Of a stretch of DNA of 64,000 nucleotides, positions 2,002 to 29,092 are shown piece after piece; within the stretch, counting starts at the first letter, position 1, and each line of letters opens with the position of its first letter. This DNA is from Candidatus Microgenomatus sp. (lineage in GTDB: Bacteria; Patescibacteriota; Microgenomatia; UBA8517). The translations under genes were made by a program, and so were the position numbers. The notes beneath the pieces were generated by a model. The model saw only the letters and a program-made list of their open reading frames with translations, had not been told where the DNA came from and searched no databases. The DNA is taken from positions 358,002 through 422,001 of the forward strand of contig DYGS01000001.1 of NCBI GenBank assembly GCA_020724585.1, in the 5' to 3' direction.

Positions 2002-3162
2002 ATGGCTTTAGTAAAACCTGATTCTGCAAGAATTGCAAAAATAAAAGTAATTGGTGTTGGCGGCGGCGGCGGGAATGCCGTTTCTTCAATGGTTGAAAAC
2101 GCGGCAATTTCAGGTGTTGAGTTTATAGCGGCCAATACAGACGCACAAGTTCTTCTTACAAATAAAGCTCCGACAAAAATCCAGATTGGGGAGAAAATTA
2201 CAAAGGGATTGGGAGTTGGCGGAAATCCTGAAATTGGCGCACAAGCGGCTGAGGAATCGATTGAAAAAATTAAAGATTTAATGATAGATACCGATATGGT
2301 TTTTGTGACCGCGGGAATGGGAGGAGGAACGGGAACAGGAGCGGCGCCGGTTATTGCCAAAATAGCCAGGGATTCGGGGGCTTTAACTGTTGGAATAGTC
2401 ACAAAGCCTTTTGCTTTTGAAGGTACAAGAAGAGCAGTCGCGGCCGAAGAAGGCATTGAAAAGTTAAGAGAGGCAGTTGACACTTTAATAGTTATTCCAA
2501 ATCAGAGACTGATGGATGTCATTGATAGAAAAATGAGCCTGGTAGATGCCTTCAAGGTAGTTGATTCTGTTTTGGAGCAGGGAGTTTCTGGTATTGCGGA
2601 AATCATAACAACTCCCGGGCTTGTCAATGTTGATTTTGCCGATGTCAAAACAATTATGAGCCAAGCAGGAACTGCACTTTTGGGAATTGGAACGGGTGTT
2701 GGTGAAAATAGGGCCCAAATGGCCGCCCGAGCGGCGGTTTCTTCTCCTCTTTTGGATTTATCTATTGAGGGGGCAAGAGGTGTTTTGTTTAACATTGCAG
2801 GCGGTAAAGACATGACCATGTTTGAGGTTGACGAGGCTGCCAAGACAATATCTCAGGCGGCGGATCAAGACGCAAATATTATATTTGGAGCAGTTATTAA
2901 AGATGATCTAATTGATCAGATTAGAATAACCGTAATTGCAACTGGATTTGACGAAACCCGCTCAAGAATTGCCCAAATGAGGACAAGCGGCACAAGACCT
3001 GTCATTCAGGGGGTAGTATCTGAGCAGATTAAGAATGAAGAATTAAAAAATAACAAAGGGAGCATAGCAGACGATACAAAAGACTATGAAATAACAGACG
3101 AAAAAGACGATATTTTCGGCGAAAAATTCGACATCCCCGCGTTCCTCCGCAAGGGTAGATAA
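2002..3162 (+). CDS. ftsZ: Cell division GTPase FtsZ
   Basis: Carries the tubulin signature GGGTGTG ([16 protein letters not shown]) and the N-terminal GGGGGNAV. Confidence 0.95.
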
Positions 3163-3169
3163 TTTTTAA

Positions 3170-3392
3170 TTTTTTTATGTTATAATTGATTAAAGCAATA
3201 AAGAGTAATCAACTCTTTGCTAAAGGAAGAAATCCTTTTTATAGCATGTGGAAAGGAAATTAGAACCTTTCGGGTAAGCCCGTAACAGCAGATTAAAGGA
3301 AGAAAATTAAGCGAAGCTTGTTTCTTCGAAATAAGGTGGTACCGCGTCTTCATATAAAAGTCGCCCTTTAAATAATATATAATTTATTTAAG
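3170..3392 (+). promoter_or_regulatory. T-box riboswitch-like leader upstream of ileS
   Basis: The T-box consensus AGGTGGTACCGCG is at 3334-3346 (UGGU would pair with NCCA of a tRNA with discriminator A). A short hairpin AAGAGT-AATCA-ACTCTT at 3201-3217 exposes ATC (an Ile codon) followed by A in its loop. The element lies immediately 5' of an IleRS gene. Confidence 0.6.
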
Positions 3393-3394
3393 CC

Positions 3395-6298
3395 ATGGCG
3401 AAAAAACAATATTTTGAAAGTATAAACTCAATGTCAGATTTTCCCGCAATGGAAAAAGAAATACTTGAGCATTGGTACAAAGATGGCATAGTTAAAAAAT
3501 ACCTAGACAAAAACAAAAATTCAGATAAGTATTTTTCTTTTCAGGATGGACCAATAACTGCTAATAACCCAATGGGTGTTCACCATGCATGGGGTAGAAC
3601 ATATAAAGATTTGTGGCCAAGATTTAAAAGCATGCAAGGTTATAAACAAAGGCACCAGAACGGATTCGACTGTCAAGGGTTGTGGGTTGAAGTTGAAGTG
3701 GAAAAAGAGCAAGGATTTAAAACAAAAAAAGATATTGAAAAGTTTGGAGTTGATAAATTCGTTGCGCTTTGTAAAGAGAGAGTTAAAAAATACTCAGGAA
3801 TTCAAACAGAACAAAGTAAACGATTAGGTTATTTTGCAGATTGGGATCACTCTTACTACACATTGTCAGATGACAACAATTACATGATTTGGCACTTTCT
3901 AAAAGTTGTTCATGAAAATGGTTGGCTCTATAAAGGTAATGGCTCAGTCCCATGGTGCCCCAGATGTGAAACCGCCATTAGTCAACATGAGATGCTAACT
4001 GAAGACTACAAAGAAGCAACACATGAATCAATTTATATGAATTTATCGGTTGTTGACTCAGACGAATATTTACTTGTTTGGACAACAACTCCTTGGACAA
4101 TACCTGCAAATATTGCTGTTGCAGTTGACAAAAAACTCGAATATTCATTAGTTGATGTTGATAACAAAAAGTGTTGGCTGGCAACTGAAGCTGTTGAAAG
4201 AGTTTTGAAGGGTAAAGTATATAAAAAGATTAAAAATGTTAAGGGAAGTGAACTTGTTGGAAAAAAATACAAAGGTGTATTTGATGATTTTCATGCTGTT
4301 AAAAAAGTTGCAGGAGATAAACTATTCCATACTGTAGTTGCAACGGATGATTTAATAATGCCAATCACAACAACAGAAGGAACTGGAATGGTCCATACAG
4401 CAGTGTCGGCTGGCACAGAAGACTTTAATTTGGGTAAAAAACTAGGACTTCCAATGATTCCAGTAATTAATGATGATGCCTCGTACATGGAGGGTTTTGA
4501 TTTTCTGACAGGCCGAAACGCTAAAGACAACCCAAGACTTATTCTTGATTACATAGAAGAAAATGGGTTTGCCTTTAAGATTGAAAAATACACCCATAGA
4601 TATCCTGCCTGTTGGAGATGTAAACAAGAACTTGTTTGGAAAGTTACTGATGAATGGTACATTGCAATGGACAAGAAAAGCATTAAAGAGCCAGAAAAAC
4701 CAACTTTGCGTGAAAGAATGATTGAGGTTGCTAAAAAAATTAATTGGATTCCAGAATTTGGGTTAAAAAGAGAACTGGACTGGTTAAACAATATGCATGA
4801 TTGGTTGATTAGTAAAAAGAATAGATATTGGGGACTAGCTCTTCCGATTTGGGAATGTAACTCTTGTGGAAACTTTGAAGTAATTGGTGGAAAAGAAGAG
4901 TTAAAAGAAAAAGCCCATTCAGGTTGGGATGTAATGGAAGGTAAATCGCCACACAAACCTCAGATTGATGAAGTTAAAATTAAATGTAGTAAATGTAGCG
5001 AAGTATGTTCAAGAATTGAACCAGTTGGTAATCCATGGTTGGATGCTGGAATAGTTCAGTTTTCAACAATATCAGAAAATAATTTAGCCAGTAATTTTGA
5101 AGTAACAGACACAAAACCACTTTATTTAACAAACAAAGAACAGTGGAGAAAATGGTTCCCAGTAGATTTCATCACTGAAAGTTTTCCAGGACAGTTTAAA
5201 AATTGGTTTTACTCAATGATTGCAATGAGCACAGTTTTGGAAAATGAGAATCCATTTAAAACTGTTTTAGGTTTTGCAACACAATTAGGTGAAGATGGTC
5301 GAGCAATGCACAAATCATGGGGTAACGCTATTGAATTTAACGAGGCAGCAGACAAAATAGGAGCCGATGTTATGAGATGGATGTTTGCAAGACAAGACCC
5401 ATCTCAAAATATGCTTTTTGGTTATAAATCAGCAGATGAAACAAGAAGACGATTTCATTTGAAGCTTTGGAATATCTATAATTTCTTTGTTACTTACGCC
5501 AATTTAGATTTTTGGAATCCAAAAAATGATGTACAAGAAAGTAAAGAAGTTCTTGATTTGTGGTTGAATGCTAGACTTAAAGAAGTAGTGGGTGGTGTTA
5601 CAAATAGTTTAAACCAATATGATGCCTACAATGCAAGTTCATTAATTGAAAAATTCGTAGATGATTTTTCAGTTTGGTATATCAGAAGATCAAGAGGTAG
5701 AAGAGATTCTAATTTTTACTCTACAACTTACAATGCACTTAAGACACTTTCTTTGATCTTGGCACCATTTAATCCATTTATCTCAGATTTGATTTACAAG
5801 AATCTTACCAAAGAGGAAAGTGTTCATTTAGCTTCATGGCCAGTTGTTGATAGTTTAAATAAGAATGAAGCTTTATTGATTGATGAAATGAAAAAATTAA
5901 GAGAGGTTGTTGAAATTGGACATAGTTTAAGGAAAGAAAATAATATTGCATTAAGACAGCCTCTTTCTAAATTAAAAATTAAAAATTCAAAATTAAAAAT
6001 TGAGGGTCTGGAAAGACTTATTTTGGATGAGTTAAACATAAAATCAATAATATGGGGCAGTAAAAAAACAGAATTAGACCTTAATATAACTCCAGAACTG
6101 GTAGAAGAGGCAAAAACACGGGAATTAATCAGAAAAATACAGGCTACAAGAAAAGAGCTTGGGGTCTCTCTTGATTCAAAAATTAGCTTGACAACAGATT
6201 GGATGCCTAAAAGTACCAAGCTTAGAAATCTGATACTTGCCAAGACTTTGACCAAAGAGGTTAAAAAGGGTGAATTTAGTGTATCATTAGTCAAATGA
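3395..6298 (+). CDS. ileS: Isoleucyl-tRNA synthetase (class I aaRS)
   Basis: The 967 aa product has a HIGH-region variant (NPMGVHHAWGRT), FDCQGLW (the IleRS WDCHGLP-like motif) and a KMSKS variant (MHKSWGN). Confidence 0.85.
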   Translation: MAKKQYFESINSMSDFPAMEKEILEHWYKDGIVKKYLDKNKNSDKYFSFQDGPITANNPMGVHHAWGRTYKDLWPRFKSMQGYKQRHQNGFDCQGLWVEVEVEKEQGFKTKKDIEKFGVDKFVALCKERVKKYSGIQTEQSKRLGYFADWDHSYYTLSDDNNYMIWHFLKVVHENGWLYKGNGSVPWCPRCETAISQHEMLTEDYKEATHESIYMNLSVVDSDEYLLVWTTTPWTIPANIAVAVDKKLEYSLVDVDNKKCWLATEAVERVLKGKVYKKIKNVKGSELVGKKYKGVFDDFHAVKKVAGDKLFHTVVATDDLIMPITTTEGTGMVHTAVSAGTEDFNLGKKLGLPMIPVINDDASYMEGFDFLTGRNAKDNPRLILDYIEENGFAFKIEKYTHRYPACWRCKQELVWKVTDEWYIAMDKKSIKEPEKPTLRERMIEVAKKINWIPEFGLKRELDWLNNMHDWLISKKNRYWGLALPIWECNSCGNFEVIGGKEELKEKAHSGWDVMEGKSPHKPQIDEVKIKCSKCSEVCSRIEPVGNPWLDAGIVQFSTISENNLASNFEVTDTKPLYLTNKEQWRKWFPVDFITESFPGQFKNWFYSMIAMSTVLENENPFKTVLGFATQLGEDGRAMHKSWGNAIEFNEAADKIGADVMRWMFARQDPSQNMLFGYKSADETRRRFHLKLWNIYNFFVTYANLDFWNPKNDVQESKEVLDLWLNARLKEVVGGVTNSLNQYDAYNASSLIEKFVDDFSVWYIRRSRGRRDSNFYSTTYNALKTLSLILAPFNPFISDLIYKNLTKEESVHLASWPVVDSLNKNEALLIDEMKKLREVVEIGHSLRKENNIALRQPLSKLKIKNSKLKIEGLERLILDELNIKSIIWGSKKTELDLNITPELVEEAKTRELIRKIQATRKELGVSLDSKISLTTDWMPKSTKLRNLILAKTLTKEVKKGEFSVSLVK

Positions 6299-23173: not shown

Positions 23174-24073
23174 TTATATAAAATCCATAATGTATTTCTT
23201 AATAATATTCAAGTTGCTTTTGATTTTACCATCTCTTAGGAAAGCCTGTGGTAATTTATTGTCTTCAATGTATATCCCCTTATTAATATCTGGTGTTCTG
23301 ATATAAAAAGACCTAACCATATCATTGTTTAGACGCGAATGGCCTTCTGGATAATCAAAACCTCTATCTATTCCATATTTGCCATCTATACAGTTTCTAA
23401 GCGTAAAATTAATTACATGTACTTTTACATCATGTCTAACACCCTTAAGAAGTGAACTAAAAGTCTTCTTATCCACAGGATATTTTTGATTACCGTCCCA
23501 AGTTTGACCAAGAGGCAATGTCAGATCTCTTAATAGGTAATCCGTAGGATCAAGCAAAACTACATTTTTTATACCTAAATCCTCCTTATTAACAACCACA
23601 AGTACAGCACTAATGGCACCGCCGCTTGTTGCAACTAAGTTTATTTCTTTAATTTTTATAATTTCTCTGATTTTTGAGATGATCTCTACAAGATTTAATA
23701 GCTGTGTTTTTGGAGCAGGAAACCGCATGTCTGTCTCCATTTGTTCAAACGAGATTGCTGCTATATTTGAGTCTTGAATTTCATTAAATAAAAACTTAGC
23801 TAGCGGCCTCAATTTTAATCTATTACCACCATCGCCGTCGATCAAGACCATTAATTTCTCACATCTACCCCTTTTCAGGTATAGATCAAATGCAGCAGAA
23901 CTTTTATTTGAGGTATCAAGAAAAAATGTTTTCATTAAAAAAATTATACCAAAACTTCTAATCTCGTCACGGGGTATATCCAATTTAATATAGTTATTGA
24001 AACTAGCTTTCAATGCGGGCGTTGGTAGACTACTTATACAACTTTTATTCTCCAAAATAATTTGCTTTTTCAA
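23174..24073 (-). CDS. Hypothetical protein, possible alpha/beta-hydrolase fold (AxSxG nucleophile elbow VATSGGA)
   Basis: The motif LVATSGGAISAV resembles a nucleophile elbow. No other clear signature. Confidence 0.3.
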   Translation of the reverse strand: MKKQIILENKSCISSLPTPALKASFNNYIKLDIPRDEIRSFGIIFLMKTFFLDTSNKSSAAFDLYLKRGRCEKLMVLIDGDGGNRLKLRPLAKFLFNEIQDSNIAAISFEQMETDMRFPAPKTQLLNLVEIISKIREIIKIKEINLVATSGGAISAVLVVVNKEDLGIKNVVLLDPTDYLLRDLTLPLGQTWDGNQKYPVDKKTFSSLLKGVRHDVKVHVINFTLRNCIDGKYGIDRGFDYPEGHSRLNNDMVRSFYIRTPDINKGIYIEDNKLPQAFLRDGKIKSNLNIIKKYIMDFI

Positions 24074-28889: not shown

Positions 28890-28995
28890 AAAAAGCTCCC
28901 AGCCAGCGATAGCTTGCGCTACCCATATTCTTTCGAATACGACCGTTCAAGGATGCTCTGACTAGGAGCTTATTTCCTTGAACGGATTTTTATAA
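28890..28995. promoter_or_regulatory. Nested inverted repeats in a divergent intergenic region (possible structured RNA or operator)
   Basis: A perfect 11-bp inverted repeat CCGTTCAAGGA/TCCTTGAACGG with a 21-nt spacer, followed by ATTTTT. An outer AAGCTCC/GGAGCTT pair and a small AGCG..CGCT hairpin are nested with it. Confidence 0.35.
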
Positions 28996-29092
28996 GCCAT
29001 GCCCAAGATTGGGTTTAGGCCATTAACTGTCTATAATTTATCACGTTAATTGAATAAATATCAACATCTGGTATTATTTTGTATATATTAAA

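Follow-up and report, generated by a model that had tools for sequence, protein, structure and literature searches.

The region between ftsZ and ileS in a 64,000-nt stretch of a Candidatus Microgenomatus sp. genome (GenBank assembly GCA_020724585.1, contig DYGS01000001.1, positions 358,002 to 422,001 of the forward strand; this whole stretch is called the window below, and positions are counted from its first letter) contains a leader that is very probably a genuine tRNA-Ile T-box. The sequence data make it likely that positions 3194-3401 as a whole form a functional tRNA-Ile-responsive T-box with an ultrashort Stem I, which has its own extended -10 promoter and controls the downstream isoleucyl-tRNA synthetase (IleRS) gene ileS. 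For the level of regulation we lean, with somewhat less assurance, towards translation, through a candidate sequestrator hairpin overlapping the start codon.

A candidate T-box upstream of ileS

An initial annotation of this region had pointed to the T-box consensus at 3335-3346. Indeed, the 12-mer GGTGGTACCGCG is present there on the forward strand. It occurs only once in the window, and the chance expectation is 0.01 matches per window with one mismatch allowed. Within the longer segment AAGGUGGUACCGCG (3333-3346), the pairing of A1, the 7-nt bulge UGGNACC and the pairing of A2 were confirmed, and the helices covary. The region 3100-3500 was searched with the Rfam model RF00230 under permissive filters. 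The full-length model (positions 1-219) was aligned to 3189-3371 with a score of 54.8 bits and an E-value of 2.1e-11 for the 401 nt searched, which extrapolates to approximately 3e-9 for the whole window. In this alignment, 55 distal Stem I positions of the model are reduced to 15. Among the 56 columns conserved at 80% or more in the 82 family members described below, the window has the consensus base in 55. The sole mismatch is U3260 at a position where the consensus is G, and U is also found here in L047, L025 and L140. The significant full-length match and the conserved columns thus bear out the proposal that the leader is a T-box. The initial placement of the element at 3170-3392 was correct as to location, but the boundaries have changed: it extends from the promoter at 3178 to the end of the sequestrator 3' arm at 3401.

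The components of the leader are listed in Table 1. A TAnAAT hexamer is present 7-13 nt upstream of the model start in all 12 leaders from the Candidate Phyla Radiation (CPR), that of the window included, and in 11 of the 12 it has the TGn extension. We infer that transcription starts near 3193, directly upstream of Stem I. The short upstream hairpin that had been said to display AUC and a following A in its terminal loop was found as described, and corresponds to Stem I. In the internal loop of Stem II, the motifs GG-AAGAA and (G/U)UAGAA-CC are conserved at 82-100%, and both Stem II helices covary. The window motifs GG-AAGAA, UUAGAA-CC and CGGGUAAGCCCGUAACAGC agree with the consensus apart from U3260. 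Stem IIA/B is near-invariant throughout the family, and 10 of the 12 CPR leaders, found independently, have it; this block was the search pattern for the metagenomic loci, so that its invariance is circular there and alignment columns 186-210 are biased. As the Stem IIA/B residues are invariant, the pseudoknot pairing is a prediction, and the S-turn is recognised by its sequence motif alone. Stem III is a 12-bp hairpin (3299-3327) present in the minimum free energy (MFE) fold. The flanking AA (3329-3330) is conserved at 88-95%, and the flanks fit the motif RRRxG-Stem III-AA as defined in PMC7583486. The A2 helix contains a U3347.U3361 mismatch.

Table 1. Features of the ileS leader and of the adjoining genes (window positions)
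Feature	Positions	Strand	Remarks
Complete T-box leader	3194-3368	+	
Extended -10 promoter, TGtTATAAT	3178-3186	+	sequence reading and 12 CPR leaders
Ultrashort Stem I, 28 nt	3194-3221	+	pair check, covariation, RNAalifold
Stem I, basal helix	3194-3196/3219-3221	+	
Stem I, 3-nt bulge AAU	3197-3199	+	
Stem I, helix	3200-3205/3213-3218	+	hairpin AAAGAGU 3200-3206 with ACUCUUU 3212-3218
Stem I, loop UAAUCAA, 7 nt	3206-3212	+	5 nt AAUCA (3207-3211) if U3206-A3212 pairs
Candidate specifier AUC and purine A	3208-3211	+	AUC 3208-3210, A 3211; Ile codon, complement of anticodon GAU
Stem II	3222-3270	+	lower helix 3222-3226/3266-3270; upper helix 3233-3239/3251-3257
Stem II, S-turn-type internal loop	3227-3232/3258-3265	+	AAGAAA/AAUUAGAA
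Stem IIA/B and F-box-like sequence	3271-3289	+	CGGG-UAAG-CCCG-UAACAGC
Stem III with purine flanks AAAGG and GAAA	3295-3331	+	helices 3299-3305/3321-3327 and 3308-3312/3316-3320
Discriminator (antisequestrator)	3333-3368	+	A1 3333-3336/3365-3368; A2 3344-3348/3360-3364
T-box bulge UGGUACC, 7 nt	3337-3343	+	
Candidate sequestrator hairpin	3361-3401	+	MFE fold, shuffles
ileS, type-2 isoleucyl-tRNA synthetase, 967 aa	3395-6298	+	candidate regulated gene; Pfam and NCBIfam
Intergenic space ftsZ-ileS	3163-3394		contains the T-box leader
ftsZ	2002-3162		gene 5' of the leader

Covariation and the specifier codon

A covariance model (R1) was built from the window leader and its hand-derived structure. 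The same architecture was found in 11 other CPR leaders and in at least about 75 metagenomic leaders. The pattern used to scan the metagenomes was the Stem II/IIA/B block, which is generic to Stem II-containing T-boxes of many phyla. Among the metagenomic matches listed, the IleRS identity to the window is at most 38% and none is a close relative; they were used as an outgroup. In an alignment of 82 family members, fitted to the model, 91.7% of cells pair, compared to 64.9% in shuffles and 26-49% with slid partners. Changes on both sides are seen in 42 of the 46 pairs, and none of 500 shuffles reaches any of the observed measures. In the 12 CPR leaders alone, 96.1% of cells pair (72.7% in shuffles, 24-56% with slid partners), and compensatory changes occur in 31 of the 46 pairs. 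As a structure-independent control, RNAalifold was applied to a plain MAFFT alignment of the seven closest leaders. Stem I was recovered together with the 3-nt bulge and the loop of 7 nt, as were Stem II in both its parts and the A1 and A2 helices around the 7-nt bulge; 16 of the 28 predicted pairs show compensatory changes. The covariation that the initial annotation had suggested looking for in orthologous ileS leaders is therefore present: among close relatives, covariation is seen in Stem I, Stem II and A2, a sign of selection on the structure.

The initial annotation had also taken the AUC displayed in the loop, followed by A, for the specifier. The alignment columns holding the specifier (33-38) have A/U/C/A at 83-92% in the 82-member family. 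In the loop, AUCA is found without exception in the 12 CPR leaders, and the stem beneath it changes completely: AAAGAG/CUCUUU in the window, ACAGAA/UUCUGU in L202, L207 and L203, ACAGGA/UCCUGU in L204, ACAAGA/UCUUGU in L206, CCGG/CCGG in L008 and L025, GCCG/CGGC in L017, UGGG/CCCA in L021, and GUCCG/CGGAC in L032. In metagenomic leaders of the same architecture, a UGGC bulge goes along with UCC (Ser) as the loop triplet. As the triplet shifts along with the bulge, the loop position is the one that is read. The invariant AUCA, the covarying stem and the presence of ileS downstream thus agree with the specifier originally proposed.

It might be argued that the leader is a T-box of conventional type in which Stem I is shortened and the second AUC (3232-3234), at the 3' side of an internal specifier loop, serves as the specifier. 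Indeed, the RF00230 alignment deletes the distal part of Stem I and puts AGAGUA and GAAGAAAUC at the specifier-loop positions. However, the second AUC is not conserved, being replaced in AAUAAAG of L021 and AACAAAG of L017. It belongs to the S-turn strand of Stem II (GG-AAGAA), which is kept in all members whatever their specifier, whereas the loop AUCA is invariant and the Ser-type leaders have the loop triplet UCC together with the UGGC bulge. This makes such an arrangement highly improbable. The cmscan placement of the specifier at 3232-3234, which is at the boundary between the loop and the upper helix of Stem II, is effectively refuted by the comparison.

Six metagenomic leaders (L115, L087, L123, L161, L098, L156) have an ultrashort Stem I with the loop NUUCCAA or CCUCCAA, that is, with the serine triplet UCC. 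Most of them carry a UGGC bulge, which would match a G73 discriminator; L087 and L123 have no visible UGGCACC. These leaders look like serine-specific ultrashort T-boxes. In one more metagenomic leader, L132, the loop is UUAGCUA.

Candidate sequestrator and the level of regulation

The candidate sequestrator is formed by pairing of UCGCC (3361-3365) with GGCGA (3397-3401) and of UUUAAAUAA (3367-3375) with UUAUUUAAG (3384-3392). In this hairpin UAAG is paired with the CCUU of A1, and the UCGCC/GGCGA helix runs across the start codon of an mRNA that has no Shine-Dalgarno (SD) box. The folding energy is -10.9 kcal/mol, compared to -3.4 +/- 1.95 kcal/mol in 1000 shuffles (p about 0.001); that of the antisequestrator A1/A2 alone is -2.5 kcal/mol. 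Positions 3361-3368 are common to the sequestrator and A2/A1, and the two folds are mutually exclusive. The MFE fold computed for the whole leader contains this hairpin, which covers the G of the AUG and the four bases after it. Thus there is an alternative pairing around the ATG at 3395, as anticipated in the initial annotation. The claim that no intrinsic terminator follows the T-box also held: no terminator-like site was found on the forward strand between the T-box core and the ATG, and no U-run of five or more was found between the bulge and the AUG. The sequence downstream of the hairpin is AAAAAACAAUAUUUUG.

The suggestion of control by SD sequestration stands in part. There is a mutually exclusive hairpin over the start, but the sequence upstream of the ileS start, UUUAAGCCAUG, contains no SD box, and the hairpin would occlude the start codon and the AU-rich 5' region. 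SD-like motifs, even 4-mers, precede only 4 of the 51 crude gene calls in the window. As SD boxes are rarely used in this genome, the predicted mode is occlusion of the start region rather than hiding of the SD box.

Similar hairpins were found in the four closest lineages with a T-box, L202, L203, L204/L205 and L207. In all of them the 5' arm is formed by the 3' strands of A2 and A1 and there is no U-run, and the sequences differ. The 3' arm reaches position +10 in L202 (-11.0 kcal/mol, p <0.001). It ends 3 nt before the AUG in L204/L205 (-13.8 kcal/mol, p 0.001) and in L207 (-7.7 kcal/mol, p 0.024), and 7 nt before the AUG in L203 (-9.1 kcal/mol, p 0.006). In the 3' arm of L203, L204 and L207, AAGG(A) lies 4-7 nt before the AUG and pairs with the CCUU of A1 in the classical anti-SD/SD manner. 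Of this motif the window and L202 retain only UAAG, and it is the start codon and the first codons that are now paired. The other CPR leaders (L206, L047, L008, L017, L021, L025, L032) are of the terminator type: their hairpin is GC-rich, lies well upstream of the AUG and has a U-run (U4 to U7) after it. The main argument for an action on translation in the window is that the terminator-type relatives have an obvious U-run and the sequestrator-type ones have none. On this basis, translational control through the 3361-3401 hairpin is the favoured, if not firmly established, mode of action.

The regulatory steps can be modelled on the established T-box mechanism. In the terminal loop of Stem I, AUC (3208-3210) would pair with the GAU anticodon of tRNA-Ile, and Stem IIA/B and the S-turn purines of Stem II would support this contact. 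With uncharged tRNA, the 3' NCCA end would pair with UGGU (3337-3340) and stabilise the weak A1/A2 helices. Positions 3361-3368 would then be kept in the antisequestrator, leaving the AUG and the AU-rich stretch 5' of it single-stranded, and ileS would be translated. If the tRNA is charged or absent, 3361-3368 would pair with 3384-3401, and the start codon would be buried and initiation blocked.

Several observations weigh against this interpretation or parts of it. Bacterial tRNA-Ile has A73, with which the fourth bulge base, U, would pair. No tRNA-Ile gene was found in the window or in any fetched CPR locus, so that A73 and the GAU anticodon are presumed for this organism. The RF00230 score is below the curated gathering score of 93 bits, and at gathering thresholds Rfam reports nothing in the ileS leader region; thus routine annotation misses the leader. 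There is no K-turn (GA motif) at the base of Stem I. The window has GC-AAU-AA...UU-GC, compared to the family consensus GC-NUU-GA...GA-GC, and the positions of the tandem G.A of the K-turn are occupied by Watson-Crick A-U pairs, 3' of a 3-nt bulge. The basal pair of A2, G3344-C3364, is G-C and not G.U; in the family this pair varies (GU 30, GC 22, AU 17). When the antisequestrator is forced, the pairing probability of the AUG region falls only from 0.69 to 0.42. The conservation of the sequestrator is topological, as its AU-rich arms are too divergent for column-wise covariation. Finally, TATAAT at 3378-3383 in the hairpin loop could be a second promoter bypassing the switch.

One possibility is that the T-box is real, and acts on transcription, as most T-boxes and several CPR relatives do. 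The structure at 3361-3401 would then be a pause site, a Rho-dependent signal or a terminator of non-canonical form. Of the 12 CPR leaders, seven are of the terminator type, and one of them, L206, belongs to the subclade of the window, so that platform types interconvert easily. The position of the window hairpin is that of the terminators in the relatives. On the other hand, there is no U-run in five lineages including the window, whereas all terminator-type relatives have U4 to U7. Besides, the 3' arm is in coding sequence, adjoining or covering the AUG in each case, which fits translational occlusion and not a terminator. We thus consider an action on transcription unlikely.

The leader might also be a decaying or bypassed relic, with ileS expressed mainly from the proximal TATAAT (3378-3383) as a near-leaderless mRNA and the T-box contributing little. 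In most relatives, ileS has a -10 box 6-8 nt before the ATG and no leader. A -10-like hexamer is present in the loop of every sequestrator-type hairpin: TATAAT in the window and L207, TGgTAGAAT in L204, TATAAA in L202 and L203. These may be second, T-box-independent promoters or remnants. Moreover, the K-turn consensus is lost in the window, Stem III is gone in close relatives, and in some of them Stem IIA/B is gone too. However, the window leader keeps all but one of the conserved positions and has the fullest set of domains in its clade, and the covariation of Stem I, Stem II and A2 in close relatives points to selection on structure. The promoter at 3178-3186 has the TGn extension, as in 11 of the 12 leaders, whereas the internal TATAAT of the window is without it, and by a rough estimate, made with no tool, TAnAAT should occur by chance in an AT-rich loop about 0.2 times per leader. 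We hold a relic or bypassed T-box to be improbable. The 9-mer GTAGAATAG in the L204 loop recurs in the leaderless ileS promoter of L002, which has no T-box.

Host, distribution and comparison with known T-boxes

The product of ileS has the Pfam domains tRNA-synt_1, Anticodon_1 and DUF5915. For the open reading frame (ORF) starting with the ATG at 3395, the top NCBIfam match by far is TIGR00392, with 616 bits and a cutoff of 621. The GC content of the window is 34%. In a collection with one genome per species, all IleRS relatives come from Patescibacteria/CPR, with identity of at most 66%. They are mostly from Microgenomates lineages, such as Woesebacteria, Collierbacteria, Roizmanbacteria, CPR3 and others. 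A protein search yielded nearer IleRS relatives with 72-85% identity, which, where named, are Microgenomates or Patescibacteria. The organism had been suspected to be CPR-like, and its IleRS relatives place it in the CPR, among the Microgenomates. At many genes of the window, for example those at 23935, 24097, 26782, 26845 and 44045, a TATAAT box lies 6-8 nt before the ATG, which suggests that leaderless mRNAs are widespread in this genome. No second T-box was found in the 64-kb window by the R1 covariance model search. A match to LOOT RNA (RF03000) is located at 28908-29021 on the reverse strand, with 77.8 bits, far over the gathering score of 46.4.

In the 80 species-level relatives, the region upstream of ileS is mostly shorter than 60 nt and has TAnAAT 6-8 nt before the ATG, which suggests leaderless mRNAs. 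Full-length R1 matches were found only in L047 (CPR3) and the Collierbacteria-like L008, L017, L021, L025 and L032, with E-values from 7e-12 to 6e-5. A strict pattern, TGGNACC[GA][CT]G, found only L047 upstream of ileS in the same 80 relatives. This is an undercount, as the Collierbacteria-like leaders have AGAUGGUACC in place of GGUGGUACC, followed by other bases; nhmmer, inspection by eye and the covariance model were used instead. A conserved non-coding block of about 250 nt (GGATCCCTAGGCTGT…GCGGTGTACCAATA…TATATGTGGGATTAATTACA) was observed approximately 150-400 nt upstream of ileS in L009, L010, L011, L014, L015 and L025. It adjoins a bidirectional-looking terminator, and no Rfam family was found in it at the gathering threshold. 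The ileS leader of L011 and L014 consists only of a promoter, AAAAGCGUUUGUC and a terminator, and may be a T-box remnant.

In the closer relatives, the synteny ftsZ-ileS-ftsW is kept in all cases. The leader directly precedes ileS in L202 (85% IleRS identity), L204/L205 (80%), L206 (77%) and L207 (75%). In L203 (83%), the T-box (87 bits, positions 364-524) precedes an inserted ORF with an NYN domain, and ileS follows at 1201. This ORF (549-1139) encodes 196 aa, and the sequestrator-type hairpin ends 7 nt before its AUG. L208-L210 (73-75%) have no leader and a leaderless-type promoter. As the leader is present in some close relatives and missing in others, its distribution is patchy, with repeated loss or gain.

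The relatives also differ in the set of domains. The Stem III hairpin is present only in the window and L047, and absent from the other 10 of the 12 CPR leaders. L202 (1029-1170), L207 (1035-1170) and L203 (364-524) are without Stem III. L204/L205 (1051-1177) and L206 (1044-1170) are without both Stem III and Stem IIA/B, so that Stem I through A1 takes up only about 123-125 nt. These shortest leaders keep the specifier loop, the S-turn, the bulge, the covarying helices and a terminator or sequestrator of their own. The K-turn loss is common to the window, L202, L203, L204, L206 and L207, all of which have GC-AAU-A(A/C)...(U/G)U-GC at the base of Stem I, and the replacement pairs covary. L047 keeps a K-turn-type CGAUGA...GGAG. 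The RF00230 scores of the leaders of CPR relatives are 34-56 bits, and five of nine are missed at E<0.001; thus such leaders would go unreported.

The best R1 matches listed include the metagenomic low-GC leaders L122 and L102, whose sources are named by NCBI as Patescibacteria group bacterium and Candidatus Parcubacteria bacterium. The IleRS of these two is only about 31% identical to that of the window. Thus the class is spread across the CPR and is not tied to one type of IleRS. Five metagenomic loci with terminator-type ultrashort T-boxes (L105, L100, L150, L142, L119) encode IleRS of 1130-1200 aa with an insertion of approximately 200 aa starting with SGNKYFVMRHG. This insertion presumably resembles a histidine-phosphatase (PGAM-like) motif.

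No literature on T-boxes in the Candidate Phyla Radiation, Patescibacteria, Microgenomates, Parcubacteria or Saccharibacteria was found in open-access full texts and preprints. Judged by its layout, the window leader is a variant of the truncated-Stem-I class in a superphylum for which no T-box reports were found. In the usual view, T-boxes regulate genes of Gram-positive bacteria (Firmicutes, Actinobacteria), and here what appears to be a complete T-box is found in a member of the CPR. Leaders related to it are scattered over Microgenomates, CPR3 and Parcubacteria; all of them are under the Rfam threshold and unannotated. CPR bacteria have very small genomes and few known regulators, and typically no amino acid biosynthesis. 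A sensor of tRNA-Ile charging on ileS would thus be one of the few identifiable nutrient-sensing circuits in the CPR.

The window leader is the most conventional of its clade, and the interest lies more in the reduced variants around it. The subclade provides natural variants without the K-turn, Stem III or the pseudoknot, with either terminator or sequestrator platforms. Tentatively, the CPR may have a streamlined T-box lineage of their own, with a 3-nt bulge for the K-turn, Stem III usually absent, the pseudoknot absent in some, and burial of the start codon on SD-less mRNAs, but we would not press this generalisation. Stem III has been called indispensable, and deletion of the pseudoknot reduced binding 1200-fold (PMC7583486). 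If the reduced forms are functional, they would be natural counter-examples to the published need for the K-turn, pseudoknot and Stem III in tRNA binding and charge sensing, and would define a minimal natural T-box. Whether a T-box can function without the K-turn was raised as an open question in a review (PMC7583486), and the variants of the window subclade bear on it.

The closest known systems are the actinobacterial ileS T-boxes. T-boxes with truncated Stem I upstream of actinobacterial ileS genes were reportedly described by Sherwood et al. in 2015. The class definitions used here are from PMC7583486, PMC7778990 and PMC11297988. Such T-boxes are known in Mycobacterium tuberculosis, M. smegmatis and Nocardia farcinica, and form class II of TBDB (PMC7583486, PMC11297988). 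The TBDB translational-class model was run only on genomes of Actinobacteria and on class I hits with truncated Stem I. The parts of the window leader match the parts list of truncated-Stem-I ileS T-boxes one-for-one (PMC7583486). The regulated gene is ileS and the specifier is AUC followed by A; Stem I is a short hairpin without the distal platform for the tRNA elbow; there is a Stem II with an S-turn, Stem IIA/B, a purine-flanked Stem III, and A1/UGGUACC/A2; and there is no terminator, the 3' strand of A1/A2 taking part in an alternative helix that blocks initiation, as predicted for the window. High-GC, actinobacteria-like metagenomic leaders among the matches listed have the same layout and align to the window model at full length. 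The suggestion that this is a truncated-Stem-I ileS T-box and not a classic Firmicute one is therefore upheld by the matching layout and by the 28-nt Stem I that ends in the specifier loop.

However, there are differences from the actinobacterial type. The host belongs to the CPR (Microgenomates), the GC content is low, and the IleRS is of type 2. The window has a 3-nt bulge and Watson-Crick pairs for the tandem G.A of the K-turn, and a G-C pair at the base of A2, where the G.U pair of known T-boxes has been described as a steric sensor (PMC7583486). The window has no SD box, and its candidate sequestrator pairs the start codon and the first codons. With the canonical transcriptional T-boxes (RF00230; tyrS and glyQS of Bacillus subtilis) it shares the T-box sequence, the 7-nt bulge for the NCCA of the tRNA, the reading of the anticodon by a specifier codon, and two mutually exclusive 3' folds that would set the output. 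Unlike class I, it has a Stem I without internal specifier loop, AG bulge or distal loop and no intrinsic terminator, and its RF00230 score falls well short of the threshold. The terminator-type CPR leaders (L047, L206, L008, L017, L021, L025, L032, L122, L102) differ from the window in that they have a U-run hairpin and look transcriptional, and most of them have no Stem III, but they have the same decoding module, the same loop AUCA and the same extended -10 promoter.

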